Shown here one piece after another: positions 20,350 to 48,480 of a stretch of 64,000 nucleotides of DNA. Both the position numbers and the translations under genes were made by a program. Numbering within the stretch: the stretch's first letter is position 1; each line of letters starts with the position of its first letter. Below the pieces are notes generated by a model. The model had not been told where the DNA came from, ran no database searches, and was given only the letters and a program-made list of their open reading frames with translations. The stretch spans positions 96,001-160,000 of the forward strand of contig JANRKS010000002.1 in assembly GCA_033763315.1 (NCBI GenBank). Reading direction: 5' to 3'. This DNA comes from Deltaproteobacteria bacterium. GTDB taxonomy: Bacteria; Myxococcota_A; Polyangia; Fen-1088.

Positions 20350-20351
20350 GG

Positions 20352-22276: not shown

Positions 22277-22277
22277 G

Positions 22278-22652: not shown

Positions 22653-22669
22653 CTGACCGGTTCGCTCCC

Positions 22670-23830: not shown

Positions 23831-23856
23831 CGAACGGCTCTCTCTTCCCTAGGTGG

Positions 23857-26495: not shown

Positions 26496-26520
26496 GAAGG
26501 GCGCTTTAACTCCGGGTTAT

Positions 26521-26547
26521 GTATCGGCGGTCTTGGGTCGGTCTTGA
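26521..26547 (-). promoter_or_regulatory. Candidate sigma-28 promoter of che operon 1
   Basis: Minus strand TCAAG-N14-GCCGATAC, ~25 nt upstream of the cheA ATG. Confidence 0.65.
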
Positions 26548-26630
26548 GAAGACAAGCCAGGTCCACTGCAGATGCGCGATGCGTTGCGCTTTTTAGCCGA
26601 CCGCCGGGCGCTTTGGTGTATTGTCAGGCC

Positions 26631-29291
26631 GTGACCGTGGCAGGCCTCTGTGTGATCGCAACCATGACCACGATGGTGGCCGCCGCATACGCGTGGCGGT
26701 TCCGGCGCCAAAAAGCATCAGCGCGCGCGATCGCCCTCTATTGTGCGTCGTTGGCTGCGTGGAACGCGCTGCACTTCATTGAGATCCGCACTGGCGGCTT
26801 GGCAGGAAAGGTCGTGGCCGACAGCCTTCAATACCTGGCGATCGGCGTTGCGGGCGCGGCCATCTACCGCGTGGCTTGGCACGAACTGGCCTGGGCGCGG
26901 TTGGGGCAAAAACTGTTTGGCTTTCTGGGCGGCTCTGCATTTGTGACCAGCGTTGTGGCCGCCTTTGCCGGTCTTGCCGGGCGCCCAGAAGCAAGGCTCT
27001 CAGTCTCATCACCCGCCATTCTTGAGTATCCCTTTACCGCCATGGATACGATTGCGTCCCTGGTCTTTTACACCGAGGTGTTTGTGGTGGTGGTCTTGCT
27101 GCTCCGCAAGCTTGCGGGCGAGCCTGCCGTATGGGCGCGGCGCACATTGGCTCTCCTTGGCGCCTTGGCCTTGCCGAGTGTCGTTGCCTTTTTTTCACTG
27201 GCCGTGGGCTTGACGATTCAGGGCGACAGAGACACGTCGCCCGCGAGCAGCATCATCGTCAGTGTATGCGTGTTTTGGCTCATGCGTCGATCCGTCGCCG
27301 CCAACATCACGCCGCTTGGCCGTCAAGCCGTGTTCGAGGCGATTCAGGACGCTGTGTTCGTGATCGACGCCAGCGCCAACGTTATAGACATCAATCATGC
27401 GGCCTGTGCTTTGGTCGGCGTGCGACCTCAGGACGTCGTGGGCAAACCAGTTCACGACATAAAAACGCGTCTCCCCGCTTTGGGCACCTGCTTCGCTGTG
27501 CAGCCACAATTGCATAGCCGTTTGGAAATCGATCTCACGCTTGCGGGGGAAATTCGCCACTTTGAGGTCAGCCAGCACGCCGTAAAGGCAGAAGGTGAGA
27601 TTGTTTTGGGAACGGCGATTCTGCTGCGCGATGCAACCATCGCCGTGCAGTCCCGGCGCGCGCTTTCCGCTTCGCACGCACAAGCGCAATCGGCGCTACT
27701 TCAATCTGAAGAGCGGTTCCGCACACTTTTGGATCAAACGTATCAGGTGATCTTGATGCTGGACGGGGACGGCAACGTAAAGTTCGCCAATCGTGCGGCC
27801 TTGGGCTTTTTCCACACCAAGTTAGACGACGTCATCGGCAAGCCGTGGTCCGCATTGTTGCAGGCTGGGGTTCCACACGATCACCAGGAGAACATGGGCG
27901 CGGCTTTGACCCATGCTAAGGACGGCGCGTTTGAGCGCATCGTGGTGCCGTTTGAGCCAAACGCCGGAGCCAAGCGCGTGCTGGACGTCTCGTTGACCCC
28001 CGTCCGCAGCGCCACGGGCCCTGTTCACGAGATCATTCTTGAGGGCCGTGACATCACAGCCATGTTGGAATCGCAGGCCAAAGGCGAATCCTTGCAGCGG
28101 CAGTTGTTCCAATCGCAGCGTTTGGAAGCTGTGGGGCGCATGGCTGGAGGTGTTGCGCATGACTTTAACAACCTCCTCATGGTGATCCTAGGTAACGTTA
28201 GCGTCTTGACCGAAGACCATTCGGTCAAGCCTGAGCAACGCGTATGTTTGGAAGACATCGAAAGGGCCGCGGTGACAGCGTCTGAGGTGGTCAAACAATT
28301 GCTTACGTTCAGTCGTCCGCGCTCGGTGGGGCACGACGTTGTAGAGCTGACCGATGTGCTGGCGCGCACGCAAAGCCTTGCCGTTCATACCGCGGGCGAT
28401 GGCGTACGATTCGCCTGGCGGGTGCAGGAAGGCCTGTGGCCGATCGTTGGTGATGCCACGCAGGTGCAGCAAATCTTGTTGAACTTGGTGGCCAATGCCC
28501 GAGACGCCACGCCTGAAGGTGGGTCGGTTGAAGTGGACATCCGCAACGTTTCGATTGCACCTGAGCAGAAAAGCCATGGCACCAACAGCCGTCCTGGCAA
28601 CTTCGTGTTGTTTCAGGTTACGGACGCCGGCACCGGGATGTCGACCGCGGTTATTGAACGTGCGTTCGATCCCTTCTTCACCACCAAGCCAGAGGGGCGA
28701 GGTACAGGATTGGGTTTGTCTGTCGTGTATGGCGCCGTCCAGGGGATGGAGGGTTTTCTCGAGCTGCGTTCTGAGGTCGGCAAGGGGACCACGTTTGAGA
28801 TCTACTTGCCTGCGGCCGATCCATCGACCAGAAGAGCCTCACAGGATGCGGTTTTGGTGAAGCAGGCGCCCCTCAAGTCGACGGTCTGGGTGGTTGATGA
28901 CCAAAGCGCCGTGTTGCTCACGATGAAACGGATCCTGGAGCATCATGGCTGCACCGTGCATGTGTTCGACGATCCGGAGGGTGCGCTGGCAGCAGCGCAA
29001 ACTGAAAGCACAGCGCCCGAAATTTTGATTACCGATCTAAGCATGCCGCGGATGTCCGGCACGGGATTGGCGCGCGCGCTGGTGCAACGTTGGCCGCAGC
29101 TGCGGGTGTTGTTTGTGTCGGGATACCCCGACATCGATTCGAAGGAGCTCGACGTCGGCGCGGCTTGTGTGGAACTGATGGTTAAGCCGTTTTCTGCAGA
29201 GGACTTCCTTCAGAAACTGAACGACTTACGAATGACGTCGGTTGACCGCGCCGTTGGGATCGGAGCGGTTCATCAATCTTCAAGAGGCTGA
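26631..29291 (+). CDS. Hybrid sensor histidine kinase: 7TM (HisKA_7TM-like) - PAS - PAS - HisKA - HATPase - REC
   Basis: Multiple TM segments, two PAS-like segments, AGGVAHDFNNLL, NLVANARDA, FFTTK..GRGTGLGL, C-terminal REC; real start near GTG 26631 or ATG 26664. Confidence 0.9.
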   Translation: MTVAGLCVIATMTTMVAAAYAWRFRRQKASARAIALYCASLAAWNALHFIEIRTGGLAGKVVADSLQYLAIGVAGAAIYRVAWHELAWARLGQKLFGFLGGSAFVTSVVAAFAGLAGRPEARLSVSSPAILEYPFTAMDTIASLVFYTEVFVVVVLLLRKLAGEPAVWARRTLALLGALALPSVVAFFSLAVGLTIQGDRDTSPASSIIVSVCVFWLMRRSVAANITPLGRQAVFEAIQDAVFVIDASANVIDINHAACALVGVRPQDVVGKPVHDIKTRLPALGTCFAVQPQLHSRLEIDLTLAGEIRHFEVSQHAVKAEGEIVLGTAILLRDATIAVQSRRALSASHAQAQSALLQSEERFRTLLDQTYQVILMLDGDGNVKFANRAALGFFHTKLDDVIGKPWSALLQAGVPHDHQENMGAALTHAKDGAFERIVVPFEPNAGAKRVLDVSLTPVRSATGPVHEIILEGRDITAMLESQAKGESLQRQLFQSQRLEAVGRMAGGVAHDFNNLLMVILGNVSVLTEDHSVKPEQRVCLEDIERAAVTASEVVKQLLTFSRPRSVGHDVVELTDVLARTQSLAVHTAGDGVRFAWRVQEGLWPIVGDATQVQQILLNLVANARDATPEGGSVEVDIRNVSIAPEQKSHGTNSRPGNFVLFQVTDAGTGMSTAVIERAFDPFFTTKPEGRGTGLGLSVVYGAVQGMEGFLELRSEVGKGTTFEIYLPAADPSTRRASQDAVLVKQAPLKSTVWVVDDQSAVLLTMKRILEHHGCTVHVFDDPEGALAAAQTESTAPEILITDLSMPRMSGTGLARALVQRWPQLRVLFVSGYPDIDSKELDVGAACVELMVKPFSAEDFLQKLNDLRMTSVDRAVGIGAVHQSSRG

Positions 29292-30149: not shown

Positions 30150-32210
30150 ATGACAACGAACGACGGTGGCGGCGAAAACCGGCCGGGGGCAGGGCTAAGC
30201 ATCCACGCTTTGCGCCGGTTGATTCTGACCGCGTTGGTGGTTTCCGTCTCTGTCAGTTCGGTTGGCGTGTTCTTGCTGGTTCACCAGATATTCGCCAACT
30301 TCGGCCCAGCTGTAGAGAAGGATCTGGAATGGCGTGCCGTGCGTGGCGCGCGGGAGCTTTCGGCTGCCAGTGCCTTGGGTTTGGCGGTCAGCGACGCCCA
30401 AACGGCGAAAGAGCATTGGATCGATCACATCAAATCACCCGATGTTTTGGCCATCGTGGCTGTGAACGCGGAAGGCGTCGAGGTGGCCCGGCACGGGCAA
30501 ACGACCTTGCGTCTGGACGAGCTGTTCGCGGGAAAGCCCGGCAAGGTGGTGCGGTCCGACAAGTACTTTCTCTCGTGGTCTGATGCGCTCGTTGAAGGTG
30601 GATCCGTGGGCCGCTTGGCCGTCGTGATTGGCACCAAGCGTCTCGTTGAATCGCAGGCGCTGCTGCAAAAGGTGCGCATCACCACGGGCGCCTCCGCGTT
30701 CTTCGCCCTGGTCGGCGGCATTTTGTTCATCACCTTCTTCACGCGCGCCATTATCAAGCGCGACGCGCAGCTAGCGGAATATGCGGCCACCTTGGAGAAA
30801 AAGGTGGAGGCCCGCACCGCGGAGCTAGACGAACGCAACCGCGGTATGCGGCTTGTGCTCGATAATGTGAGTCAGGGTTTCGTGACCGTCAGTCTTGCGG
30901 GGGTCATGGCACCCGAACGATCCGCCGTGGTTGACCAGTGGCTTGGGACGCCGAAGGAAGGGCAAACCTTCGATTCCTTTGTTCGTCCCTTCGATCCCCA
31001 CGCGGCCGATTGGTTCTCGCAGGGCCTCGTTGAAATTGCCGAAGACATCATGCCCCTTGAGCTTTTGATCGAGCAGCTCCCCAAGCGTGTGCGAGTCATG
31101 ACGATGACCCTTGCGGCCTCGTACATTCCGATCATGCGCGCCCAGAAGGTTGAAAACATCTTGGTCGTGTTGACAGACATCACAGCGGCCTTGGAGCGTG
31201 AACGGCTGGAGCGCGAGCAAAAGGAGACTTTGGCCATGTTCGGGGCCATATCCAGCGATCGCAGCGGTTTTGTGGATTTTCTTGAGGACGCCGAGCGCAT
31301 GGTCAAATCCATCACGGAGGCCGAGGACGATGACTTCGACACCGAGAAGCGCCTCATCCATACGCTCAAGGGAAACGCTGGTCTGTACGGCTTAAACAGT
31401 GTTGTGGCTGTATGCCATGACATCGAATCACGTATGGTGGAGGACGGCGAACGACTTAGGCCCCAAGAGCGCTCCTTGGTGCAATCAGCCTGGAGCCCCG
31501 TTGCCGCGGCCGCTCGAGCTCTGCTGGGGGAAGGGGCCAAGGGGCTGGTCATCGAACAGCGAGACTACGATAAACTTGCGCAGCTTATGCAGTCGGGTGC
31601 TTCGCTTGTGGCGCTACAGAAGGAGCTGGCTTCGTGGCAACATGAACCGGTCAACTTGCGCCTGGAACGGCTGGCCACGCAAGCACGCCAACTGGCCCAC
31701 AAGATTGGCAAGCCGGGTATACGCATTCTCACGGACGCGGATGGCGTAAGGCTTGATCCGAAACCATGGCTTGGTTTTTGGTCCGCGTTCGTGCACGTCG
31801 TTCGTAACGCGGTTGATCACGGCATTGAACCGCCCGACACGCGCGTCGATAAGGGCAAGCCCGCGCACGGCAACCTGTGGCTGTCTGCGCGGCTTGAGGC
31901 GGGCGCTTTCATCGTTTCAGCCCGTGACGACGGCAAAGGCATCGATTGGGTGAAATTGGCTGCGAAGGCCGCCGAAAAAGGGCTCCCAGCGAACACGCGT
32001 CCAGAGCTTGAGACCGCTTTGTTTTCAGATGGGGTCTCGACCCTCGACAGCGCCACGACTGTGTCGGGGCGTGGTGTGGGGATGGCAGCTGTACGCCAAG
32101 AGGTACTGGACCGTGGCGGCAAGATCAGCATCCATTCAGAGCTTGGCCTCGGCACCACATTCGAGTTTTCTTTCCCCTATCCGTTGGCGAGCGCTGTGCG
32201 TGCGGCCTAG
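30150..32210 (+). CDS. Class III histidine kinase 1 (TM-periplasmic-TM, PAS-like, HPt, CheA-type HATPase, no CheW domain)
   Basis: Two TMs, RLVLDNVSQG, IHTLKGNAG, HVVRNAVDHGIE, DDGKGID, SGRGVGM; ends right after the kinase domain. Confidence 0.85.
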   Translation: MTTNDGGGENRPGAGLSIHALRRLILTALVVSVSVSSVGVFLLVHQIFANFGPAVEKDLEWRAVRGARELSAASALGLAVSDAQTAKEHWIDHIKSPDVLAIVAVNAEGVEVARHGQTTLRLDELFAGKPGKVVRSDKYFLSWSDALVEGGSVGRLAVVIGTKRLVESQALLQKVRITTGASAFFALVGGILFITFFTRAIIKRDAQLAEYAATLEKKVEARTAELDERNRGMRLVLDNVSQGFVTVSLAGVMAPERSAVVDQWLGTPKEGQTFDSFVRPFDPHAADWFSQGLVEIAEDIMPLELLIEQLPKRVRVMTMTLAASYIPIMRAQKVENILVVLTDITAALERERLEREQKETLAMFGAISSDRSGFVDFLEDAERMVKSITEAEDDDFDTEKRLIHTLKGNAGLYGLNSVVAVCHDIESRMVEDGERLRPQERSLVQSAWSPVAAAARALLGEGAKGLVIEQRDYDKLAQLMQSGASLVALQKELASWQHEPVNLRLERLATQARQLAHKIGKPGIRILTDADGVRLDPKPWLGFWSAFVHVVRNAVDHGIEPPDTRVDKGKPAHGNLWLSARLEAGAFIVSARDDGKGIDWVKLAAKAAEKGLPANTRPELETALFSDGVSTLDSATTVSGRGVGMAAVRQEVLDRGGKISIHSELGLGTTFEFSFPYPLASAVRAA

Positions 32211-32278
32211 GTCGCTAACCGCGGGCCCACGCTCGTGATCGTTGTGCAAGCGAGGCCACCCCTCTTGATATTTTTCAT

Positions 32279-32306
32279 TAAAGCGGCTGGCGCCTCCACC
32301 CGATAG
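32279..32306 (+). promoter_or_regulatory. Candidate sigma-28 promoter
   Basis: TAAAG-N15-CCCGATAG upstream of the PBP/barrel/lipoprotein genes. Confidence 0.5.
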
Positions 32307-32366
32307 CCCTCGTGCATTCAAGCAAGTGCCGGGTCAAGTGAAAAGGCCGCCAGTGCCGGAGGTTTT

Positions 32367-32855
32367 ATGAAAGCGAGAGATGTCATTTCCCGCAGGGCGT
32401 TCGTCCGCGGCGCTTCTTTGGCCGCAGCGGCCGGTGGCTTAAGCTTGTTGCCGTGTCCCGCGCACGCACAAGCTGAACTGGTGGTGGTGGTGAACGCGCA
32501 AGCGGACACGGGGCCGCTCAATGAAGCGCAGTTGGCTTCGATATTCACTGGCGGCGATAAGGCGTGGAAGAACGGTAAACCCATCAAGGTCTTCAACCTC
32601 GCGGCGCAGACACCGGAACGAGCCCAGTTTGACAAGGTCGTTCTGAAAAAGACCCCCGAACAAGTGTCTCAGTACTGGGTCGATAAGTTGGTCCGTGGCG
32701 AGGGACAGCCACCCACGCAGGTACCTCGCGTTGAACTTATGGCAAAGGTTGTGGCGTCGTTGCCGGGTGCCATTGGTTACGTCACGCCTGACAAGGTCGA
32801 TGCAAAACTCATCGTGGTGGCCCGCATTCGCGGTGGAAAGGTGGTGGCGCCATGA
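32367..32855 (+). CDS. Small periplasmic binding protein (PstS-like single lobe) with Tat-like signal
   Basis: SRRAFV signal, AHA cleavage, LVVVVN, IFTG....W.NG.PI, YW......G..PP, PGAIGYV. Confidence 0.75.
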   Translation: MKARDVISRRAFVRGASLAAAAGGLSLLPCPAHAQAELVVVVNAQADTGPLNEAQLASIFTGGDKAWKNGKPIKVFNLAAQTPERAQFDKVVLKKTPEQVSQYWVDKLVRGEGQPPTQVPRVELMAKVVASLPGAIGYVTPDKVDAKLIVVARIRGGKVVAP

Positions 32856-34402
32856 ACTCCTACTTGCGAGCAAACGAGGTAAAGGGAATGAGGCTTAGGT
32901 TCTTTGCAAAAACGGCTCGCACCACAGCTTGTGCGCTTGCGTGCACAGCTCTGCTTGGGTCTTCGCTCGCCAGCGCGGCCCCCGCCCCGGCGAACGCCGA
33001 CATCGAGGCGCTCAAGAAGGAGCTTGCTGAGCTCAAAGCAGAGTTAGGCGCGCAGCGCGAGAAAGTTGATGCGGCTTCTGCCAAAGCCGTGGAGCGTGCG
33101 GTCGTCGAGGTTGTTGATCAAGCCACGCCCGCAAGCAACACGGAACTCGAAACTGTGAAGCAAGAGTTGGCCGCCATCAAGGCGGAAATGGCCTCGGCGG
33201 CTGAAGCCCAGCTTGCCAAAGAGATGGAAGAGCTGCAGGCGGCCGACGCCGAGCGCGAAAAGCCATCCCTCAAGATCTATGGCTTCCTGGACGCCGGTCT
33301 GTCGAAAGCGTGGTTGTCGAATCAGAATCCGTTCGGACCTGCCTATCCGTTCAAAAATGCGACGTTCGTGCCTGGCAATATGAATCTGTATTTCGACGGG
33401 CGGCCGTCGCCCTACTTCCGCGCTTTGCTAGAAACGCGTTACTCGTTCTATCCCCACGGTGATGTTCCAACCACCGGCACCGATGTCAAGCGCACCGATA
33501 CGCGCCTGCTCGATACCTTCAGCACCTCTGGATACAACAAGGTTGTTTGGGGCGGCACGATCATCGAACGCGCCCAGATGGACTGGCTGCCAAAGCAAGA
33601 ATTTAACCTGCGTATCGGATACTTTTTAACGCCCTACGGGATCTGGAACGTAGACCATGGCACGCCCACGCTCATCTCGATGCTGCTGCCGCAATTTCAG
33701 GTGGAAGAAGCGATCCCTCAACGCCAAACGGGTGTGCAGGCCTTTGGCTCTCACAGCGTCGCTCCGTTCGAGGTGGGTTACAACGCCTATATCAGCAACG
33801 GCCGCGCGCCTTTCATCATGCGGACGGCGCCTGGCTTCGGCTCGGGCGGCAGGCTTTACCTGCGGCACATGGGCACCGCCACCACCACGGTGGGCACAAG
33901 TTGGTACTACAGCACGTTCCAGCAAGACAAGCTTGGATTCAAGCTTTCGCCTGAGTTCTCGCTCACGTCGGCGGCCGTGTACAAAGGAACAGAGTGGGCG
34001 GTTGGCGCAGATCTTTCTGTCGACTACGGCCCCTTGCGCATCCGCAGCGAAGGCCTGATTCGCCATGTGAAATATGACGAAGGTTTCCACGAGCCCACAA
34101 GCGAATTTGGTACCAGCAATAAGCCGAACCGCTACGAGAACTATGGTTACGTGATCGCTGCCTACCGCATTGGCAAGTACTTCGAACCCTATTGGTATCA
34201 AGAAATTAAATGGGGGCGGCCCGCGTATACCTCTGCGGAGATCGCGAACGTGACCTCCGGCGGCCTGAACATCTACTTCACGGCCCAGACGATGTTGAAG
34301 CTCCAGTACGTCTACTTGAACTTTTACAATCGAAACGAGGCGCCCGATCCTGACAACCAGGATCTGAAATACTTCATCTCCCGCTTCATCACCGTGTTCT
34401 AG
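32852..34402 (+). CDS. Outer-membrane beta-barrel (porin-like) with N-terminal coiled coil
   Basis: Signal peptide (likely start 32888), ~85 aa coiled coil, KIYGFLD, IERA..DW...FNLRIGYFLTPYGIWN, C-terminal Phe. Confidence 0.75.
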   Translation: MNSYLRANEVKGMRLRFFAKTARTTACALACTALLGSSLASAAPAPANADIEALKKELAELKAELGAQREKVDAASAKAVERAVVEVVDQATPASNTELETVKQELAAIKAEMASAAEAQLAKEMEELQAADAEREKPSLKIYGFLDAGLSKAWLSNQNPFGPAYPFKNATFVPGNMNLYFDGRPSPYFRALLETRYSFYPHGDVPTTGTDVKRTDTRLLDTFSTSGYNKVVWGGTIIERAQMDWLPKQEFNLRIGYFLTPYGIWNVDHGTPTLISMLLPQFQVEEAIPQRQTGVQAFGSHSVAPFEVGYNAYISNGRAPFIMRTAPGFGSGGRLYLRHMGTATTTVGTSWYYSTFQQDKLGFKLSPEFSLTSAAVYKGTEWAVGADLSVDYGPLRIRSEGLIRHVKYDEGFHEPTSEFGTSNKPNRYENYGYVIAAYRIGKYFEPYWYQEIKWGRPAYTSAEIANVTSGGLNIYFTAQTMLKLQYVYLNFYNRNEAPDPDNQDLKYFISRFITVF

Positions 34403-34411
34403 GACCCCCTC

Positions 34412-34813
34412 ATGCGAGCCATGCATCTCATCACCATGTTGTCGTTGATGTTGGGTTTCACCGCCATCGCCTGCACAGAAGACGATCCGTGTGACCCCGG
34501 CTTCATTCACGTCAAATCCGCGTGCGTGAAGCTGCCGCCAGCCCCCGTGGCACCCAACCTAGATGCGGCCGACGACGCCGCCAGCCCCGACGCCATGGCG
34601 GCCAAAACTTCAGAGTTGGGGGACCCATGCACAAGCAACGCCGATTGCGTGGGCGCTAACAACATATGCATCAACGACTTCTCCAACCCTATGTACTGCA
34701 CCAAGAGTTGCGTACAAGGCGACCCCTCCGCTTGTCCCGCCACATGGACGTGTTTCAATGCAGAGCCCTTTCTCCCCGGGACAGGGCAGATCTGCGCCAA
34801 ACCTCGAAAGTAG
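34412..34813 (+). CDS. Cys-rich lipoprotein A (8-Cys C-terminal domain)
   Basis: Lipobox AIAC, Asp/Ala linker, C-x5-C-x6-C-x9-C-x3-C-x7-C-x5-C-x13-C. Confidence 0.75.
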   Translation: MRAMHLITMLSLMLGFTAIACTEDDPCDPGFIHVKSACVKLPPAPVAPNLDAADDAASPDAMAAKTSELGDPCTSNADCVGANNICINDFSNPMYCTKSCVQGDPSACPATWTCFNAEPFLPGTGQICAKPRK

Positions 34814-34816
34814 CTC

Positions 34817-35314
34817 ATGACCATGTTTAAGAACGCTCTGTTGACGATTGGCGTGGTTGCGCTTGCGATGTCTGCAGGCTGCGACAAGGATCCCGGATGT
34901 CCCGACAATGGGGTTTTCGGCAAGTACGGTTGCGAACCAGCCACCGACGCGGCGGCTGACGTGGCAATGAGCACGAACGGTTCAGACGTCAGACCTGCAA
35001 CTGACGGTTCAACGGTAGACGCCGCAACGGACGGCCCCGCAGCCATCCGCGACGCGGGCTCCGACGACGCCATGTCCGTTGCAGACACAGGCGCAGGCGA
35101 CGCAGCGCCTTCCTTTGGGTCGGCCTGTTCGTCGAACGCCCAGTGCACGGGTGCCGTTGACTATTGCAGCAAGCAGCCAGGTGCGCCCGTCGGCTATTGC
35201 ACGCACACGGGATGCAACACGATGCCTGCGATTTGTCCCGCGAATTGGTCTTGCCTTAACTTGGGCATGTTCGCGCCGAATCTGCCCCACGTGTGTGCCA
35301 AGCCAGCGACGTAG
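34817..35314 (+). CDS. Cys-rich lipoprotein B (paralog of A)
   Basis: Lipobox SAGC, DA-rich linker, C-x5-C-x6-C-x10-C-x4-C-x6-C-x5-C-x13-C. Confidence 0.75.
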   Translation: MTMFKNALLTIGVVALAMSAGCDKDPGCPDNGVFGKYGCEPATDAAADVAMSTNGSDVRPATDGSTVDAATDGPAAIRDAGSDDAMSVADTGAGDAAPSFGSACSSNAQCTGAVDYCSKQPGAPVGYCTHTGCNTMPAICPANWSCLNLGMFAPNLPHVCAKPAT

Positions 35315-35328
35315 GACTCAAAGTTAGC

Positions 35329-35363
35329 CGGCGCAAAGTATTGATTTGCGCCGACCTTCTTCT
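35329..35363 (+). terminator. Probable intrinsic terminator
   Basis: CGGCGCAAA-N7-TTTGCGCCG perfect stem followed by a pyrimidine tract, between convergent genes. Confidence 0.5.
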
Positions 35364-35422
35364 TCCGTGTACTCCGAAAACCTTCTGGGCGTGATCGATA
35401 AGATCTCGTCTCTACGTTCGCG

Positions 35423-35947
35423 CTAGAACATCAACGATTCACCTTCTTCTACGGCTGCCTGCGTCTCGTCACGTTCGAACGACATCTCAAAACCGTCCAA
35501 GAGTTCGATATCGATCCACACCGTGATAACGCCGCCGGGCGCATCGAACACCAAGGGGCGAAGGCAAGAGCTCGCCTCCATGAAGATGTGCTCACCACGC
35601 AAGACCACGGGGGTGCTGATCGAAATGTCCACCTTGTGGGGCAGCATGCGGTTCTTCACGCGTCCGGCCAGCTGGTTCGAAAGCTCTGCGGTCCAATCGC
35701 GCTGCGAACCAGCGCCTGTAACAGGGTTTGATCGCGCCAAGGGCTCTGCGGTGGCTGAAAGTACGAGGCTGCCGCGAAAGTTGTCAGCCGTGAATCCGAC
35801 GATGCCACAGTAAAGGATGCCGTCTGCCCCGCCCGCGGCCCCCGAGCCGTTTTCAGAGACATGAACGTTGTAGTCCTGAAACAGCTTGACGCAGCTCTCG
35901 GTGGTAAGCGTTTCCAAGAAACTTCTAACTTGCTTCTCATCGGTCAT
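35423..35947 (-). CDS. cheX: CheX-like phosphatase (class III kinase-associated type)
   Basis: GIVGFTA..FRGSL, DWTAELSNQLAGRVK, ISTPVVLRG; ends EGESLMF. Confidence 0.85.
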   Translation of the reverse strand: MTDEKQVRSFLETLTTESCVKLFQDYNVHVSENGSGAAGGADGILYCGIVGFTADNFRGSLVLSATAEPLARSNPVTGAGSQRDWTAELSNQLAGRVKNRMLPHKVDISISTPVVLRGEHIFMEASSCLRPLVFDAPGGVITVWIDIELLDGFEMSFERDETQAAVEEGESLMF

Positions 35948-36066
35948 CTCGTCATTCCTTTCCTCAGCCAACCAACGCAGAGGCCGCCGGCGGACGTCGT
36001 GGTGGTAACGCGCCCTCCACGTCGGTCCCTGCTTTCCCCGTGCTTCTCGTACTTTCCTGCCCGCTG

Positions 36067-36094
36067 AAATCGGAGGCCCAGCAACGGAACTTGA
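36067..36094 (-). promoter_or_regulatory. Candidate sigma-28 promoter (toward cheX)
   Basis: Minus strand TCAAG-N15-TCCGATTT. Confidence 0.45.
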
Positions 36095-36118
36095 GCAGTG
36101 CGTTTCTCTGTTTCAGAT

Positions 36119-36146
36119 TCAAGTTGGCCAGGCGCAGAACCGATAC
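36119..36146 (+). promoter_or_regulatory. Candidate sigma-28 promoter (toward cheY)
   Basis: TCAAG-N15-ACCGATAC; back-to-back with the previous site. Confidence 0.55.
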
Positions 36147-36191
36147 GAACATTGGGCTTTTCGTTCATTTTGCAAACAGGAAGGTAGAGGA

Positions 36192-36560
36192 ATGAAGCGC
36201 ATTTTGGTCGTAGACGATTCGCCGAGCGTCAGGCAGCAAGTGAGCATGTCGTTGACCCAGGCCGGTTATGATGTGGTGGAAGCAGGCGATGGCACCGAGG
36301 GCGTAAGTAAGATCGCAAGCGATCGCGCCATTGGCCTTGTTATCTGCGACGTCAACATGCCGCGCATGAACGGGCTCGAAATGATCGAGGTCGTGAAGAA
36401 GGAGCCCAGCAACGCGAGCCTGCCAATCATCGTGCTGACGAGCGAAGGACAACCCGCGCTGATAGAACGCGCGAAGAAGGCGGGTGCCAAGGGATGGATT
36501 GTAAAACCCTTCAAGGCCGACTTGCTTGTGGCCGCCGTGAAGAAGCTGCTCGCTGCCTGA
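36192..36560 (+). CDS. cheY: CheY-like single-domain response regulator
   Basis: ILVVDDS, CDVNMP, LTSE, GWIVKPF. Confidence 0.95.
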   Translation: MKRILVVDDSPSVRQQVSMSLTQAGYDVVEAGDGTEGVSKIASDRAIGLVICDVNMPRMNGLEMIEVVKKEPSNASLPIIVLTSEGQPALIERAKKAGAKGWIVKPFKADLLVAAVKKLLAA

Positions 36561-36566
36561 GGTTCG

Positions 36567-37499
36567 ATGGACTCTGAAGACGCATCCACGCCTCCGATCG
36601 GCGATAAGGCGGTTGAGATCAGCATCACGCTGCGATCCACGCTGGCCCAGCGGATCAGCGAAGTCGTAGCCATGACTGAACGAGAGGTCATGGCCGCCGC
36701 TGAGAGTGTGCATAGCATCGTTGGGGTTGCGTCTGGCCAGGTCACCGCGCTTAAGGAAGTCATTCGGAATTCCACGGATGGAGCCGGTGAATCCTCAATG
36801 GGTCGTGCCATATCGTTGCAGCTAGGAAGCGCGACGAGTTTTGCCAAAGACCTGGCAATGCGTATCGAAGAGCAAAGGCAGATTGCGCGTGCGGCGGCAG
36901 ACAGCGCGGCCGGCATTTCAGAAGCGGCGTCGAGCGTGCAGGGGTTGACCCGACGAGCAAACATCCTGGCGCTCAATGCGCGGATTGAAGCCACTCGTCT
37001 TGCGGGCAACGCCCAGGGCTTCTCCGTCATTGCCACGGACATGAAGAACCTAAGCCAGGCCATCGCCGATTTGAACGGGACAATTTCGGGGCTCGCACGA
37101 ACCGTGCAGTCGTTGATTCCGAAGTTGGCGTCAGGCGTGGAAACGATGAGCCTGAAGTCGCACGACTTTTCCGAAACGTTGCGCGCGGGCATGTCGGAAA
37201 TTGAAGAGGTGTCGATTCGTCAACGCAATGAGGTCAACCAAGCGTTGGAGACGAGTGATCAAGCGATGAGCCGAATCATCCGCGCGTCGCACCAAGCCCT
37301 TTCCCACCTGCAGTTTCAAGACGCTGTGGCGCAGGGACTCATGCGCTTGGATAGCCGCGCAAGAGACGCTGTGGTGGAGCTCTGCAAGTTGAGCGGCCGG
37401 GAAGACCGGATCGCTGGTCTGGCGCCGGCGATGCACATTGAAATGGGTGGCGAGAAGCCTGTTGAGCAGACCAACGCCGGCGAAGTGACGTTGTTCTAA
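36567..37499 (+). CDS. Soluble, unorthodox chemoreceptor-like protein
   Basis: No TM; ANILALNARIEATRLAGNAQGFSVIA tip; LQFQDAVAQ; ends GEVTLF. Confidence 0.8.
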   Translation: MDSEDASTPPIGDKAVEISITLRSTLAQRISEVVAMTEREVMAAAESVHSIVGVASGQVTALKEVIRNSTDGAGESSMGRAISLQLGSATSFAKDLAMRIEEQRQIARAAADSAAGISEAASSVQGLTRRANILALNARIEATRLAGNAQGFSVIATDMKNLSQAIADLNGTISGLARTVQSLIPKLASGVETMSLKSHDFSETLRAGMSEIEEVSIRQRNEVNQALETSDQAMSRIIRASHQALSHLQFQDAVAQGLMRLDSRARDAVVELCKLSGREDRIAGLAPAMHIEMGGEKPVEQTNAGEVTLF

Positions 37500-37558
37500 G
37501 CTCCTCTGGGCGACGAAGCGCTCGCCCGGGCATCACCGAGGGCCAACAAGCGGAGCCG

Positions 37559-39670
37559 CTATGCCGCGGACGCGGATTGCCACCATGTGGCGTTCGCCAA
37601 CGGCAGCTCTATATCGAACCGGGTGCCGCTCCCTGGCTTCGTTTCGACCCTCATCGCACCGCCTTGGACAAGCACAGCGTCTCGCAGCGCGCCCACGCCC
37701 ACGCCACGCCCAGAATTCTCTGTGACTTCACTTGCGGTGGAAGCCCCCCGCGCGCAAACCAGGTCTATCAGCGACCAAGACGCCGCAGCGGCGCCATGAA
37801 TCTGCGTCACCTTTTCACGCAGGCGTTCCACGTCGATGCCACGGCCGTCGTCCTCGATGCTCAACCTCAAAATGCCGTTTTCTGCGCGGCCACGCAGCAC
37901 CACTGTCCCCGTGCGGTCCTTGCCTCGATCGGCCCGTTCCTCCGGCGATTCAATTCCGTGATCCACTGCGTTGCGAATCGCATGAACCATCGACGCCCAT
38001 ACGCCGTCAAACTGCTTTCGATCCATGCGAATGTCGTGGCAATCAACCACCACGTCAACATCCTTGGCCATGCGCTCGCCGATGCGCTTGGCGTGCCCAC
38101 CCAACTGCTCCAGAATGCGTTCAGCCCGTGTGAGTCTCCACGATGAAACGCGGGCCGCGGTCGCGGGATCTCGATGCAATAACGTTTGGCGCAGCCACTC
38201 GAATTCGTCCGGCTGCACCTGCACCATATCCTGGCTCTGACCCGCCAGGGCTTCAACGCGCTTGCGGCTCTCGGCAAACATCTCCTCCAACTGTTCGAAG
38301 CGAGACGGGTCCAGGGCTTTCCCCGTTTCAGCGATCTCGTCTTCCAGTTTGTGGCACGCCTCAGCCATTCGGCCAAAGCCAATCATACCTGCATTTCCCT
38401 TGAGCGTATGCAGATCAGCCTGCTGCCGGATGATCCCACCTTGTTTCATCAAATCAAGACGCCGCAAGCTGTCCTCGACAAAGCCCGTATACAGTTCTGG
38501 ATCGCGAAAGCACAGGCCCACAACGCTGAAGACTTCTTTTGATTCGGCTTCTTGTGCCTCTGCCTCTCGTTGTGCGGTCACGTCTGAAATGACCACCAGG
38601 ACGCCGGCCAACTTCTCGACGCTGCCAACGGCGCGGTAGCTGAGGCCGTAGATCGTTTTGCCGATCTTCAAGTCCTTGGGCATCAGGTCGGCGGCACACT
38701 CGAACGGGAAGATCTCGGACGCCATTTGATCGAACGCCACACTGAATTTTTCAGCGAACCCTGGGCATTGGGCTCCTAGATGCTCCCAAACGGGCACACC
38801 TTCGGGAATCTCTCCAAACCAATCGTTCGTGCGTTTCGAGCACGCGCCAGCGAGCCGCCCATCCATCCCGATAGGTATCAAGGCATCGCCCGTGCTGTCC
38901 AACACCAGCCGCAGGCGCGCGGTTCGATCTGTGATCTGTTCGGCCATGTTGTTGAACGATCTGGCCAGTTCACCCAGTTCGTCTTTGGCATCCGTGTTCA
39001 CAAGCAGCCGTTCGCCTTGCGCCAACGCGCGCACGCCTGCCAGCAGTTTGTTGATGGGGGTTGTGATGCGCGTAAGCACGAAGGCCATGACCAGCAAGGC
39101 GACGAACAGACCCACCGCGGCCACGGTCCAGAACATCTTGACCGGTGCGCGGACGTCCTTTCGAACGCCCACAAGGCTGGCGTCAACACCCTTGCCGATG
39201 CTGATTTTGAGCTTTGCAAGTGTTCCAAGGGCATCTGTGATCGCCTCTTCCAATTGCAGCGCTTCAATTTCATCTAACGCCTTGCCTCTTGACGCTGTCG
39301 TCTTCTCCTGTGCGTCGGAAAAGGTCTTCGACGCTTCCAACAACGACTTCATCACGTCACCTTGCGGGCTGCGGGCAATGGCCCGCTGCAAGTGTTGTTG
39401 AGCGTCTGTCAGAGTCGCAAGGAACCTCACCTGCAAGCCGTCGTCGGGGGGATCGGCCCAGCCTCGGGAAAGCGTTTTGGTCAAGGAATCGCCGTTGTCC
39501 AAGGTGTTGGTCAGGCGAATCAACAGTTCTGATTCGCTCGATACGCGGTCAACAGTGCGCGCGATGCTCGCAAACTGAACCGTTCCCAAGATCGTTACAG
39601 AAAGAAGAAGAGCCGCCAGAAGGCCCGTCGTGGCCATCAAACGGAACCGGATGCTGCTGAGCCAATTCAT
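37559..39670 (-). CDS. Class III histidine kinase 2 (TM-helical periplasmic domain-TM-HAMP, PAS-like, HPt, HATPase; no CheW)
   Basis: DELGELARSFNNM (HAMP), RLVLDSTGD, LHTLKGNAG, HAIRNAVDHGIE, DDGRGID, SGRGVG. Confidence 0.85.
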   Translation of the reverse strand: MNWLSSIRFRLMATTGLLAALLLSVTILGTVQFASIARTVDRVSSESELLIRLTNTLDNGDSLTKTLSRGWADPPDDGLQVRFLATLTDAQQHLQRAIARSPQGDVMKSLLEASKTFSDAQEKTTASRGKALDEIEALQLEEAITDALGTLAKLKISIGKGVDASLVGVRKDVRAPVKMFWTVAAVGLFVALLVMAFVLTRITTPINKLLAGVRALAQGERLLVNTDAKDELGELARSFNNMAEQITDRTARLRLVLDSTGDALIPIGMDGRLAGACSKRTNDWFGEIPEGVPVWEHLGAQCPGFAEKFSVAFDQMASEIFPFECAADLMPKDLKIGKTIYGLSYRAVGSVEKLAGVLVVISDVTAQREAEAQEAESKEVFSVVGLCFRDPELYTGFVEDSLRRLDLMKQGGIIRQQADLHTLKGNAGMIGFGRMAEACHKLEDEIAETGKALDPSRFEQLEEMFAESRKRVEALAGQSQDMVQVQPDEFEWLRQTLLHRDPATAARVSSWRLTRAERILEQLGGHAKRIGERMAKDVDVVVDCHDIRMDRKQFDGVWASMVHAIRNAVDHGIESPEERADRGKDRTGTVVLRGRAENGILRLSIEDDGRGIDVERLREKVTQIHGAAAASWSLIDLVCARGASTASEVTENSGRGVGVGALRDAVLVQGGAMRVETKPGSGTRFDIELPLANATWWQSASAA

Positions 39671-39687
39671 GGTGTCACCGCGCCCAA

Positions 39688-40137
39688 CTATCCCTTGATC
39701 CGAAATACGACTTTGATTGGTTTGTCGCTGGCTTTCTCCAGAGAGCTGGCAGCCACGAAGCCGATGGCGCCCTTAAACGCGCCGATGTATTTGATCACGC
39801 CCTCGTCGTCTGTCATCCGCTTGGGCGGGCTTTCCGCCGAACGGTATTTGATCTCAAGCCAGTGACGTTCCAAGTCGGTTGCGTTTGTTTTGAGAACCTT
39901 GGTGATGAAGACGGTTCGTGCCCCATCGTCCATCTCGCTTTCCACCGGGCGTATTTTTTCGCCATTAGGCCAGGCGCTTTTTTGTTTCATGAAGTGACTG
40001 CGGATGTCGTCCGCGGTCATCGTGGTGTTCGGATTCGAGGCGTGCACGATGACGGCAATCTCAACGGGTGTGGCTGAAACGGCTGGCTTGCCCAGAGCTG
40101 CCAATACGAGAATCAATGCGATTCGTAGAATTTTCAT
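39688..40137 (-). CDS. Small periplasmic binding protein, paralog of 32367
   Basis: Sec-type signal from ATG 40137; IAVIVH, W.NG.KI, HW......PP, GAIGFV. Confidence 0.75.
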   Translation of the reverse strand: MKILRIALILVLAALGKPAVSATPVEIAVIVHASNPNTTMTADDIRSHFMKQKSAWPNGEKIRPVESEMDDGARTVFITKVLKTNATDLERHWLEIKYRSAESPPKRMTDDEGVIKYIGAFKGAIGFVAASSLEKASDKPIKVVFRIKG

Positions 40138-40147
40138 GGTGTGCCCC

Positions 40148-41368
40148 TTAGAAAGCAAAAGCGGTTTGAAGCATCAGTCCGTGTTTCGCGCGAGCTCCCG
40201 CAAGCGCTTCGGAGTACTCGACCTTCACGCGAACCCGGGGGGCGAAATCGTAGGAAAGGCCTCCCATCAACATCGCTGTTCTTGGCACGAAAACGCGCAC
40301 CACATCGTCGCCATCGCCTCGGAGGCCAAGGTAGGGGCCGCCGTTGGTTTGCGGAAGCTTCACGTAGTCAAAGCGCACGTAAGGCTTGAGCGCTCCGGTC
40401 GAAAGCAGATTGGCAGAAAGTTCGACGAATGCACCTTGGAGGGCGCCATTGCGCTCAGTGGCGGGCAGCACATTGTCGCGATCCCTATGCTGCTGATAAA
40501 GGTATTCGCCGATAAGGTTCACGTGGTTGGAGAAGATCGCGAGATGGGCGTCCACGCCAACTTCGGTGAGGCGAAGGCCCTGTGCTGCGGGATTCAGTGT
40601 TGAGTCGCCGCCACCCACCGTGGGAATGTAGAAGCTGGAAATACGGTCATACCAGCCTGAAACACCGAGTGTGGTTGAACGAAAGGCGGGAACCAACCAT
40701 TCGAGCATCGCAGTTGTGGTTCGCCAGCCGTCGTCGTCGCGCGCATATACCGCTTTGTCAGGCGAGGTGTTTCGCCCATTGCCCACCGAAACAGCGTATT
40801 TCAGCAGGTGAGACCGGCCCAGATCGAAGATGCCGTGCGCATGAACGCCCGTTGTGTGCGTGGGAACAAAGTTGTTCTCTTCCTCGAAAAGGTCGGGAAT
40901 TTGCGCCGAAATCATCATCCACGCCCGCGCGTAAAGGTTCCGGTTAAAATAGCCAATGGGTGTGAAGAACAACCCCGCTTGGATGTTCAACTGCGGCAAA
41001 ATGCGGTACTCAAGGAACATTCGTTCCACATCCAGTTCAATCTCGTCCTTGCGGCCACGGGCGGCTTGAAGGTTCACTTCCGCAAGATAGACGAAACGAT
41101 CGTCCAACTCCGTGGTGAGGACAAAGTCGGTTCCTACCAGCCCAAAGCCCTGATTGCTGTTCTTTACAAAAGCGTCTTCGCCACCCGCACCAAAGGCGGC
41201 ACCCTGGGTGGCCTGCGCGGGCTTGCCTCTCAGCACGCCGTACGTGATATCTGAAAACGCCGAAAGTGACGTTTCGAATTCACCCGCACGGCTGACGCCG
41301 GGCAGCGCGAAGAGCCCTACGCCTGCCATCACTGAAGCATACCGAAGCAACGTTGACTTTTGGAACAC
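40148..41368 (-). CDS. Outer-membrane beta-barrel (porin-like), paralog of 32852
   Basis: Signal peptide, VERMFLEY...LNIQAGLFFTPIGYFN, KPYVRFD, ends TAFAF. Confidence 0.75.
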   Translation of the reverse strand: MFQKSTLLRYASVMAGVGLFALPGVSRAGEFETSLSAFSDITYGVLRGKPAQATQGAAFGAGGEDAFVKNSNQGFGLVGTDFVLTTELDDRFVYLAEVNLQAARGRKDEIELDVERMFLEYRILPQLNIQAGLFFTPIGYFNRNLYARAWMMISAQIPDLFEEENNFVPTHTTGVHAHGIFDLGRSHLLKYAVSVGNGRNTSPDKAVYARDDDGWRTTTAMLEWLVPAFRSTTLGVSGWYDRISSFYIPTVGGGDSTLNPAAQGLRLTEVGVDAHLAIFSNHVNLIGEYLYQQHRDRDNVLPATERNGALQGAFVELSANLLSTGALKPYVRFDYVKLPQTNGGPYLGLRGDGDDVVRVFVPRTAMLMGGLSYDFAPRVRVKVEYSEALAGARAKHGLMLQTAFAF

Positions 41369-41400
41369 GAAGACCTCCCTACACGACTCTGATTTTTGGG

Positions 41401-42576
41401 CTAAAGGCCCGACACGAACAAAATCAATTGCTGACGCTCGGCATCGGAGAGAGCCAGGTACGCCGCTTTGACCCCCGACGCCTCACCTGCGTGATCGGCG
41501 ATGGCGTCTGCCACCCCACCCGCGCGTCCGTCATGCATCAACCCGACGTTGCGCGAAAGGCCCCAAAGGGGCGGCGTTCGGAATTCAGCGCCCGTTGCGG
41601 CGCCTTGAACGATCGAATCACCCGTACCCACATCGTGAAGCAGCAGATCCGAATACAGACGCACCGTTTGGTTCGCCAGAGCGGGGGAGACCTGACTGCC
41701 CGTTTGATAGCTAGTCCGGTGGCACGAGGCGCAGCCCACCGACGTGAACAAGGCCGCGCCCGCGGCCATCTCAGGTGTAAGCGGCGCCGACACCGGCGCA
41801 GTGGAGAATCGCATGAAGCTTGCGAGCGCAGGCACCACGCCCAACCGGGCTTCCGGATCTGGGGTGGGATCCATCAGCTTCAGCATCTCAACATTCCCTC
41901 CCGGCGCGTTCTCGGTGGGAAAGATGTCGTTCGTTATGCCCATCTCATTCCGGTACGCGTCTGCAGCGAACACATCCAGCGTTGCGTGCTGCGACTTCCA
42001 ACCGAAACGACCGACGCGCATCACCTTGCTCTTCGCATCCAACACCATGGCGGCCCTGCCGAGCACGCCGGCCGGTTTGGGCTCTTGTGCGGCGGCCATG
42101 ATGGCTTCGTCTGGTATCGCTTCAATGAGGCCTAAACCAAGGACGTTTGTGGTACGGCGTCGCGCGATCGTTTGGCAATGCGCCGGAACGTTCGCACTCG
42201 CCACTTCAGGGCGGGTTGAGAACAAGAAAATGAGCGACCCACCGGGAGGATCGCTTAACGATCCATCGGGACCTTTGCAGGCCGCCCTCGCCACCGTCAC
42301 AACCCCGGGGCCGCCCACGCCTTGGCTCGCGTGACAGCCAGCGCACGATGTCCCGTTAAAGAGTGGCCCGATACCGGCGGCGGCGGATTCAGTTTCCAGA
42401 AACTCGGAGCGTCCGAATATGAATTGCGCGGTTTCGTCCGCTGAAAGACCCTCCATCGCTAAGGCTGCGGTGGCACCGTGAACTTCAGGAGCCGGGGTCG
42501 CGTCTTCACACCCTGCGAGGGGCGCCGAAGCCAATGCAGCCGCCACCAACGCCACGATGCGCAAACCAACTTGCAT
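41401..42576 (-). CDS. Di-heme oxidoreductase (DHOR) family lipoprotein
   Basis: Lipobox LAGC; GPLFN..SCAGCH, GLGLIEAIPD, GRFGWK, CASCH, YSDLLLHD, FRTPPLWG, MHDGRA. Confidence 0.9.
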   Translation of the reverse strand: MQVGLRIVALVAAALASAPLAGCEDATPAPEVHGATAALAMEGLSADETAQFIFGRSEFLETESAAAGIGPLFNGTSCAGCHASQGVGGPGVVTVARAACKGPDGSLSDPPGGSLIFLFSTRPEVASANVPAHCQTIARRRTTNVLGLGLIEAIPDEAIMAAAQEPKPAGVLGRAAMVLDAKSKVMRVGRFGWKSQHATLDVFAADAYRNEMGITNDIFPTENAPGGNVEMLKLMDPTPDPEARLGVVPALASFMRFSTAPVSAPLTPEMAAGAALFTSVGCASCHRTSYQTGSQVSPALANQTVRLYSDLLLHDVGTGDSIVQGAATGAEFRTPPLWGLSRNVGLMHDGRAGGVADAIADHAGEASGVKAAYLALSDAERQQLILFVSGL

Positions 42577-48109: not shown

Positions 48110-48472
48110 ATGGCGCGCATCATGACGATTGATGACTCTGTTTCGATGAGAAAGCTTGTCGCGGCAACGTTGGCCGCTGCCGGCCATGAGGTCGTGGAGG
48201 CCAGCAACGGCAGCGAAGGCCTGAGCCTCGCGAAGCAAGGCTTGGTGCAGCTTTTCATTAGCGACATCAACATGCCGGTCATGGACGGACTCGCATTCGT
48301 GAAAAGTTTGCGCACGATAGCCGCGTACAAGTTCACGCCCGTGCTGATGTTGACCACCGAGATGGATCCCGACAAAAAGAAGGTGGCCAAAGAGGCGGGG
48401 GCCACCGGGTGGCTGGTAAAGCCCTTCGATCCCGATCAGCTCCTGGCGACCATTCGCAAAGTTCTGGACTAG
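48110..48472 (+). CDS. cheY: CheY
   Basis: TIDDS, SDINMP, YKFTPVLMLTTE, GATGWLVKPF. Confidence 0.95.
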   Translation: MARIMTIDDSVSMRKLVAATLAAAGHEVVEASNGSEGLSLAKQGLVQLFISDINMPVMDGLAFVKSLRTIAAYKFTPVLMLTTEMDPDKKKVAKEAGATGWLVKPFDPDQLLATIRKVLD

Positions 48473-48480
48473 GTGGCGCC

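Follow-up and report, generated by a model that had tools for sequence, protein, structure and literature searches.

What do an outer-membrane barrel and a small binding protein do beside a chemotaxis-type histidine kinase: take up a solute or pass on a signal? The question is raised by the region 30150-42576 of a 64,000-nucleotide stretch of a Deltaproteobacteria bacterium genome (Myxococcota_A; assembly GCA_033763315.1, contig JANRKS010000002.1, positions 96,001 to 160,000; hereafter the window). Here two sets of genes, each encoding a class III histidine kinase, a small protein related to periplasmic binding proteins (PBP), a barrel and a lipoprotein, lie on either side of a CheX-CheY-receptor core. 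An earlier note on this DNA had proposed that barrel and PBP are a relay dedicated to the class III kinases rather than an uptake system. We find that the two proteins form a conserved pair that occurs beside membrane sensors and is not accompanied by an ATP-binding cassette (ABC) transporter, which makes a signalling role more plausible than uptake. To that extent the proposal stands, but the dedication to class III kinases does not: the pair follows the periplasmic input domain of the sensor, often CHASE8-like, rather than the kinase class. The twelve genes of the region are as follows (lengths in amino acids, aa; TM1 and TM2, first and second transmembrane segments).

30150..32210, + strand: class III histidine kinase 1 (686 aa; Pfam Hpt and HATPase_c only; TM1, CHASE8-like periplasmic domain, TM2, PAS-like region, HPt, CheA-type ATPase domain)
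32367..32855, + strand: single-lobe PstS-like periplasmic protein 1, PBP1 (162 aa; NCBIfam TAT_signal_seq)
32852..34402, + strand: porin-like outer-membrane barrel 1 (516 aa; paralogue of barrel 2)
34412..34813, + strand: Cys-rich lipoprotein 1a (133 aa; lipobox, 11 Cys; paralogue of 1b)
34817..35314, + strand: Cys-rich lipoprotein 1b (165 aa; paralogue of 1a)
35423..35971, - strand: CheX phosphatase (Pfam CheX, E 2.1e-6, 28.1 bits against a cut-off of 27)
36192..36560, + strand: single-domain CheY-like response regulator (Pfam Response_reg, E 2.5e-28, spanning all 122 aa)
36567..37499, + strand: soluble receptor like methyl-accepting chemotaxis proteins (MCP) (310 aa; Pfam MCPsignal, E 3.5e-10, as sole domain)
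37559..39670, - strand: class III histidine kinase 2 (703 aa; Pfam HAMP, Hpt and HATPase_c; TM1, 136-aa periplasmic domain of no known family, TM2, HAMP, PAS-like region, HPt, CheA-type ATPase domain)
39688..40158, - strand: single-lobe PstS-like periplasmic protein 2, PBP2 (156 aa; Sec-type signal; paralogue of PBP1)
40148..41368, - strand: porin-like outer-membrane barrel 2 (406 aa; modelled with 16 strands)
41401..42576, - strand: di-haem oxidoreductase (DHOR) lipoprotein (Pfam DHOR, E 2.4e-45, and Cytochrom_C; lipobox read from the sequence)

Genes and geometry are as first described. Open reading frames (ORFs) are present at every coordinate that the earlier note gave; module 1 runs on the plus strand from 30150 to 35314 and module 2 on the minus strand from 42576 to 37559, with the cheX, cheY and receptor genes in between. 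Spacing is tight in module 2, where the DHOR gene comes first in the operon, 33 bp upstream of barrel 2, and the next two junctions are an overlap of 11 bp and a gap of 17 bp. In module 1, kinase 1 and PBP1 are 156 bp apart and the PBP1 and barrel 1 genes overlap by 4 bp. The modules had been called paralogous, and alignment bears this out with similarity well above chance for the kinases (29% identity, 509 columns, E 4e-63), the PBPs (26%, 132 columns, E 4e-13) and the barrels (27%, 131 columns, E 1e-5); the shared motifs quoted for them are seen in the translations. Lipoproteins 1a and 1b are 39% identical over 85 columns (E 2e-14). The alignment of the two kinases starts only at the second transmembrane segment and runs onward from there, and their periplasmic domains are mutually unrelated (hhalign probability <1%), again as claimed.

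A porin and a single PstS lobe

The small proteins had been taken for PBPs. Their relationship to binding proteins, namely to PstS, holds; they are not complete two-lobe binding proteins, having one lobe only. The mature protein has ~125 residues. In an AlphaFold 2 (AF2) model of it (pLDDT 86, alignment of 18 relatives), 105-124 residues align with one lobe of chains of 241-373 residues, rather than with two lobes and a hinge. Foldseek gives PstS at ranks 1-36 among the matches listed (best 4exl, E 4e-8), with about 120-130 columns aligned in chains of 240-320 residues. VIA-align against 48,161 chains finds the second lobe of PstS at Z 14.9 to 10.5 and other type II lobes next; in the best match (Z 14.9), 120 residues are aligned to PstS lobe 2. 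Sequence profiles point the same way: the family profile matches PstS among PDB sequences (4exl at 6.7e-13), and PBP_like_2 is matched by 14 of the 18 family members. PBP1 itself shows weak PBP_like_2 (Pfam) and partial PstS-family (NCBIfam) matches, and PBP2 matches the family profile at E 9e-48. No Pfam family is matched by PBP2, barrel 1 or barrel 2 at E<=0.01.

The conserved anion-binding Ser-Gly-Ser/Thr stretch of PstS lobe 2 is not kept in the family consensus. The PstS segment NRAAGSGSRATFD aligns with the consensus NlaagsperaeFD, in which GSGSR has become gsPEr. We take the residues of the Ser-Gly-Thr turn, or GSGSR, to be those that bind phosphate in PstS, and because GSGSR is replaced, canonical phosphate binding by the lobe family is unlikely. 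The most conserved motif of the family is W[IV]D[RK].[VI]RGE..PP, a segment that lies outside the aligned stretches of 4exl and 4ecf and is weakly aligned in 1twy.

The lobe family counts 10,727 clusters at 50% identity at E<=1e-3, a number that may take in true PstS proteins, 6,946 at E<=1e-10 and 223 at E<=1e-30. Most of the 150 best matches are 140-175 aa long. Several others (P0021, P0025, P0026, P0046, P0066, P0088 and P0090) are 250-290 aa long with two matched stretches, apparently two lobe copies per protein. Look-alike clusters in the ESM Atlas (140-167 aa) come from Myxococcota, Acidobacteriota and Pseudomonadota and have often been named automatically as phosphate ABC transporter substrate-binding proteins, a name that is probably misleading for this family.

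The barrel is, as modelled, a 16-strand porin distantly related to OprP/OprO. The AF2 model of barrel 2 (pLDDT 80, 16 strands) is matched in Foldseek by OmpT (3.1e-13), OprP (3.8e-13) and OprO (2.8e-12), OprP and OprO holding ranks 2 and 3 alongside general porins; further general porins and DcaP follow. Porin_O_P is matched by 12 of 39 aligned barrels at E<=0.1 (best 1.2e-7) and BBP2 by 4 of the 39, while barrels 1 and 2 themselves have no Porin_O_P match at E<=0.01. Barrel 1 carries an N-terminal Ala/Glu-rich, heptad-like (coiled-coil) stretch of ~90 residues (about 45-135), which gives weak SMC/MuiA-type matches. Pfam results for the proteins of the region include no OmpA-family match.

These folds suggest a first alternative to a relay, a ligand co-receptor: the porin would be the entry channel for a small, probably anionic solute, and the PstS-derived lobe would bind it, alone, as a dimer or at the sensor interface, and present it to the sensor in the manner of LuxP, TorT or AioX. 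Binding-protein-dependent sensor kinases are known from LuxP-LuxQ, TorT-TorS and AioX-AioS, whose partners are complete two-lobe proteins that close on the ligand. The idea draws on the clear descent of the lobe from PstS, on the distant relationship of the barrel family to the anion-specific OprP/OprO and on chemoreceptors being the commonest neighbours of the pair in a second phylum (see below). AioX, a binding protein that partners a sensor kinase, is among the lower structural matches of the lobe, at Z 7.8, where a match below Z 8 may reflect a mere common arrangement. However, one lobe is unable to close on a ligand as two-lobe proteins do, the family has gsPEr in place of GSGSR, and no ligand is known; we therefore regard a co-receptor as rather unlikely.

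Conservation and gene neighbourhood of the pair

If barrel and PBP belong together, they should be neighbours elsewhere, and a survey of gene neighbourhoods supports this. The lobe family profile matches 54 of 401 Myxococcota genomes. We assembled 46 loci outside this genome, 6 from the search for related loci and 40 as the best of the profile matches, and a barrel gene is adjacent to the lobe gene in 41 of them (40 of the 45 loci with a local lobe call, plus L081, in which the lobe was found by the family profile search). The usual order is barrel, then lobe. The loci without a barrel are L047, L048, L068 (a 1.9-kb contig), L080 and L084. A metagenome scan returned 498 relatives, from which 80 loci were kept; the barrel adjoins the lobe in 61 of the 80, and where both flanks extend for >=1.5 kb (22 loci), it does so in 18. 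These 61 pairs comprise 45 in the order barrel-then-lobe, 15 in the order lobe-then-barrel and one on opposite strands. In a second phylum, the Fibrobacterota, 27 of 201 genomes match at E<=1e-8, and all 20 loci taken from 41 matches show barrel-then-lobe.

This recurrence bears on the simplest alternative, that the modules are a chance neighbourhood in a signalling-rich region and the shared motifs reflect ordinary family membership. Signalling genes are indeed plentiful in the window, with several kinases and SpoIIE phosphatases besides two full che clusters, but adjacency in 41/46, 61/80 and 20/20 of independent locus sets, one of them from a second phylum, makes chance very improbable. Our searches of the open-access literature found no description of the barrel-lobe pair, and none of the open-access papers that they gave on CHASE8, by title and abstract, concerns a porin or half-PBP partner.

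The earlier note had also stated that no ABC permease or ATPase accompanies the PBPs, and the flanking genes, when scanned, show no ABC-transporter domain. This holds across the genome. It has five small-lobe genes, each adjoining a barrel gene, and none of its 68 ABC_tran and 16 BPD_transp_1 matches comes closer to these than about 10 kb. The genome also has three complete PstS genes, at other sites, and two of these have pstCAB alongside. The possibility that the PBPs pair with ABC permeases in other organisms finds no support either. Local ABC and BPD_transp_1 profiles detect no BPD_transp_1 permease in any fetched locus of the genome, metagenome and second-phylum sets, and the ABC ATPase ORFs number one in the genome loci (L014, 5.1 kb off), three in the metagenome set (in L186, L190 and L199) and two in the second-phylum set.

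The lipoproteins had been described as swappable inputs, which does not describe the Cys-rich type: within the PBP1 clade, this type is conserved alongside barrel and lobe as the third member. The family occurs beside barrel and lobe in 44 of the 80 metagenome loci and in several PBP1-clade genome loci, and its members consist of a lipobox followed by a low-complexity linker and, at the C terminus, a Cys-rich domain (consensus of 55 sequences). The ESM Atlas offers no reliable family for it, all scores being <0.9. DHOR has no tblastn match in the 46 related genome loci and thus appears peculiar to module 2.

Other arrangements occur in this genome. Two further sets of lobe, barrel and Cys-rich lipoprotein have no adjacent kinase (C32:478528-482137, L007, and C32:573088-576333, L008); one follows a gene for a 483-aa PEGA-domain protein and has a lone receiver gene 0.8 kb downstream, and the other follows a metallophosphatase gene. 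A barrel and a Cys-rich lipoprotein without a lobe gene are found at C23:156981-158791 (L009), downstream of a gene for a ClpB-like AAA protein.

Sensors beside the pair

Which genes, then, does the pair accompany? A kinase or chemoreceptor lies within 3.5 kb of it in 33 of 45 genome loci, namely 26 classical or hybrid histidine kinases, 4 class III kinases and 3 chemoreceptors, and the transducer is the next co-directional gene in 17 of the 45. Pfam assigns 20 downstream genes to 6 kinases (HisKA and/or HATPase_c), 3 chemoreceptors, 1 class III kinase and 1 truncated HAMP protein, the remaining 9 being unrelated enzymes or proteins of no family. Among the Fibrobacterota loci the next co-directional gene encodes a chemoreceptor in 6/20 and a kinase in 3/20, and several others have a chemoreceptor gene just upstream; by Pfam, 10 Fibrobacterota neighbours are 4 chemoreceptors, 3 kinases and 3 unrelated enzymes. 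In metagenome loci with >=3 kb on both sides, a kinase or chemoreceptor is found within 4 kb in 9 of 11.

We cut the periplasmic domains of the adjacent transducers between predicted transmembrane segments. The arrangement of TM1, a periplasmic domain of about 100-250 aa and TM2 is seen in 33 of 38 transducers examined, and the domains cluster into five multi-member groups. The first unites kinase 1, a class III kinase on contig C28, six hybrid kinases and one chemoreceptor; another consists of five class III kinases, and another of two kinases and a chemoreceptor. The same family of periplasmic domain is therefore found beside the pair on different outputs (class III kinase, hybrid kinase and chemoreceptor). 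Pfam recognizes CHASE8 in 8 of 31 periplasmic domains (best E 3.9e-12), dCache_1 in 3 and sCache_4 in 1. The periplasmic domain of kinase 1 has no direct Pfam CHASE8 match; its family matches the CHASE8-positive class III group with an hhalign probability of 96.3% (E 1.9e-9). The domain of kinase 2 is unrelated to either of these two groups.

The lobes track these groups. The five sensor groups can be placed on a tree of 49 lobes with 4 changes, the fewest possible; the ten label shuffles listed of 300 took 15-18. Among 74 class III kinases, the pair accompanies 7 of 8 with CHASE8-like sensors, one of which (L075) entered the sample through its lobe, and 3 of 66 with other sensors. Since loci are shared by descent, the counts show joint inheritance of lobe and input domain across outputs, not independent events.

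The CHASE8-like sensor region of kinase 1 (residues 14-229) recurs in the genome, at 33% identity, as the front part of a 497-aa SpoIIE/PP2C phosphatase (C8:108031-109524, corresponding to L010:4032-5525, - strand). The contig of this gene has no barrel or lobe match.

The same neighbourhoods give rise to another alternative, a co-regulated envelope function in which porin, lobe and lipoprotein form a structural or uptake unit beside two-component systems, or controlled by them, and send no signal. A divergent kinase in 14/45 genome loci, often with a receiver-domain match beside it, would suit this alternative, as would the 12/45 with no detectable transducer and the two copies in this genome without an adjacent sensor. 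It accounts less well for pairs that share their direction with closely spaced chemoreceptor and class III kinase genes. Neither chemoreceptors nor class III kinases control transcription, which means that the pair is not just an operon that they regulate. In addition, the lobe clades track sensor input families across different outputs, and no inner-membrane transporter lies nearby. On balance we hold a purely co-regulated unit to be unlikely.

Class III kinases have a smaller share in this than had been assumed. That both kinases of the region are class III follows from their domain content, in agreement with the earlier note. Adebali et al. (2017, J Bacteriol 199:e00218-17) are said to define the class by a sensor, an HPt and a CheA-type catalytic domain, without dimerisation or CheW-like domain, and reportedly found such kinases together with CheX, a single-domain regulator and, in many cases, a soluble receptor. 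Both kinases combine HPt and the CheA-type catalytic (P4) domain within one protein (Pfam Hpt, HATPase_c), behind an N-terminal sensory region of TM1, periplasmic domain and TM2 according to transmembrane prediction. NCBIfam CheA models cover the catalytic part only (residues 487-680 of kinase 1 and 509-694 of kinase 2), and neither kinase matches H-kinase_dim (P3) or the CheW-like domain (P5) at E<=0.01. As a positive control, both canonical CheA proteins of the window, 24285-26495(-) and 48409-50487(+), show H-kinase_dim and CheW. The expected accompaniment (CheX, a 122-aa receiver and a 310-aa MCPsignal-only protein) lies between the two kinases, and from gene position we infer that both may converge on CheY 36192.

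A search of the 401 genomes with the cytoplasmic part of kinase 1, with at most four matches scored per genome, gave 71 full-length class III matches outside this genome, one of them (L087) interrupted by stops. Barrel and lobe lie within 5 kb of only 6 of the 70 intact genes sampled in the phylum (L067, L069, L076, L089, L104 and L130, the lobe of the last coming from the family profile search); the pair thus does not characterize class III kinases as such. This genome has three class III kinases, and the pair accompanies each of them. CheX, CheY and receptor genes are within 5 kb of 14, 16 and 3, respectively, of the 74 class III kinases, which are lower bounds from weak local profiles.

Other signalling genes surround the region. 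A complete canonical chemosensory cluster occupies 19894-26495 (-) and encodes CheX, CheR, CheB, CheY, a 386-aa HAMP-MCP, CheW and a CheA with Hpt, H-kinase_dim, HATPase_c and CheW domains. A second, at 48110-50963 (+), encodes CheY, a CheA with all four domains and CheW, with ORF 50973-51830 next to it. Counting the class III core, the window thus holds three separate CheY-centred systems. Just beyond module 2, the gene 44647-46419 (-) encodes a 590-aa protein that joins HATPase_c_2, a kinase domain like those of anti-sigma factors, to a SpoIIE phosphatase domain. The long ORF 25359-29291 (+) encodes a 7TM (HisKA_7TM) PAS hybrid histidine kinase. The start as listed overlaps the opposite-strand CheA gene, and the true start is therefore probably near residue 430.

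A candidate trans-envelope relay and known systems

A precedent for an outer-membrane protein and a small periplasmic protein acting on a sensor is the YfiBNR system. Passages of PMC8085984 describe the periplasmic domain of YfiN as now classed CHASE8, the periplasmic YfiR as repressing YfiN, and YfiB, a lipoprotein of the outer membrane that resembles OmpA/Pal, as counteracting this repression. According to a part of PMC4655355, YfiR has the fold that a single sub-domain has in a type I periplasmic binding domain. The reading that we favour over its rivals, at about even odds, is that each module of the region is a three-tier, YfiBNR-like trans-envelope input relay acting on the periplasmic domain of its sensor. 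Gene context is what points to this reading, and it is from context that we infer physical contacts, the direction of the signal and phosphotransfer to CheY 36192.

The tiers would be the OprP-like 16-strand porin in the outer membrane, the PstS lobe as go-between in the periplasm and, as target, the periplasmic input domain of the kinase, which resembles CHASE8 in kinase 1 and belongs to an unrelated type in kinase 2. The lobe would contact the sensor domain and so set kinase activity, and the porin would control how much free or ligand-loaded lobe arrives at the kinase, a role that the Cys-rich lipoproteins may share in module 1. Both class III kinases would autophosphorylate their own HPt and pass the phosphate to the single CheY 36192, from which CheX would remove it; the soluble MCP-like protein may modulate this core. 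In a complex prediction, lobe residues 35-162 with the periplasmic domain of kinase 1 scored 0.46, and a control with chain 1 replaced scored 0.55.

Several points weigh against such a relay. The porin has a channel fold, unlike YfiB, and would fit ligand entry as well as sequestration. Binding of the lobe to the sensor and an effect on kinase output are presumed from context rather than from direct evidence. The divergent upstream kinase of 14/45 genome loci is an arrangement usual for a regulator and the operon that it targets, and 12/45 have no kinase or chemoreceptor within 3.5 kb, as judged by local hidden Markov models that are blind to other outputs such as GGDEF. In this genome, 2 of the 5 copies (C32:479989 and C32:573780) adjoin the gene of a PEGA protein or metallophosphatase and no sensor. 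The sensor domain of kinase 2 is not CHASE8-like, and no relative of it was seen beside other pairs. Lastly, related genomes share loci by descent, and the tree and cross-tabulation counts overstate independence to that degree.

A broader version of the relay, to which we give slightly less than even chances, is that the very large, unnamed PstS-lobe family and OprP-like porins together form a general trans-envelope input device, to which a Cys-rich lipoprotein has been added in one clade. In two or more phyla, such a device would plug into CHASE8 and other domains that histidine kinases, chemoreceptors and class III kinases carry in the periplasm. To our knowledge, the periplasmic domains of most bacterial sensor kinases and chemoreceptors have no known cue, and the route from the outer membrane to a sensor is largely unknown. 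The device would then be a common and so far unstudied accessory input route for sensors of several output classes. It would supply testable partners for CHASE8 and other orphan sensor domains and an upstream handle for class III kinases, whose signals are unknown. A natural free-standing single lobe of a type II binding protein would also bear on the evolution of two-lobe binding proteins.

How does the region compare with systems already described? With published class III systems it shares the sensor, HPt and CheA-type domain, the single-domain regulator, CheX and the soluble receptor; here, in contrast, two kinases flank one regulator core and a porin and single-lobe pair stands beside each kinase, and we know of no such pair in the published class III description. 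Uptake by OprP/OprO and PstS-PstCAB likewise combines a porin of the Porin_O_P kind with a PstS-type protein, whereas the pair has no PstCAB, half a PstS and gsPEr where PstS has GSGSR. LuxP-LuxQ, TorT-TorS and AioX-AioS have in common with the modules a gene of the binding-protein superfamily adjoining that of a membrane kinase, with no ABC transporter; they differ in that the protein here is a single lobe and an outer-membrane porin is always in the set.

The lobe shows no sign of being a YfiR. None of the 18 family members matches PF13689 (DUF4154, the YfiR family) at E<=1, YfiR is not among the matches of the family profile to sequences of solved structures, and it is not among the 50 matches listed by Foldseek or by VIA-align for the lobe model, listings that may miss a distant likeness. 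The likeness to YfiBNR (also TpbB; Pseudomonas aeruginosa and E. coli), as far as the passages cited above describe that system, is one of organization: an outer-membrane protein, a small single-lobe periplasmic protein and an inner-membrane transducer, with CHASE8 on YfiN and a CHASE8-like sensor on the kinase of module 1. The differences lie in the parts. In the outer membrane stands a 16-strand porin where YfiBNR has an OmpA/Pal-like lipoprotein; PstS (type II), not DUF4154, is the source of the lobe; the outputs are class III kinases, classical kinases and chemoreceptors, where that of YfiN is GGDEF; and kinase 2 has a sensor domain of another type. If the relay exists, it would be an invention parallel to YfiBNR, made from another binding-protein lobe and with a channel in place of the lipoprotein.

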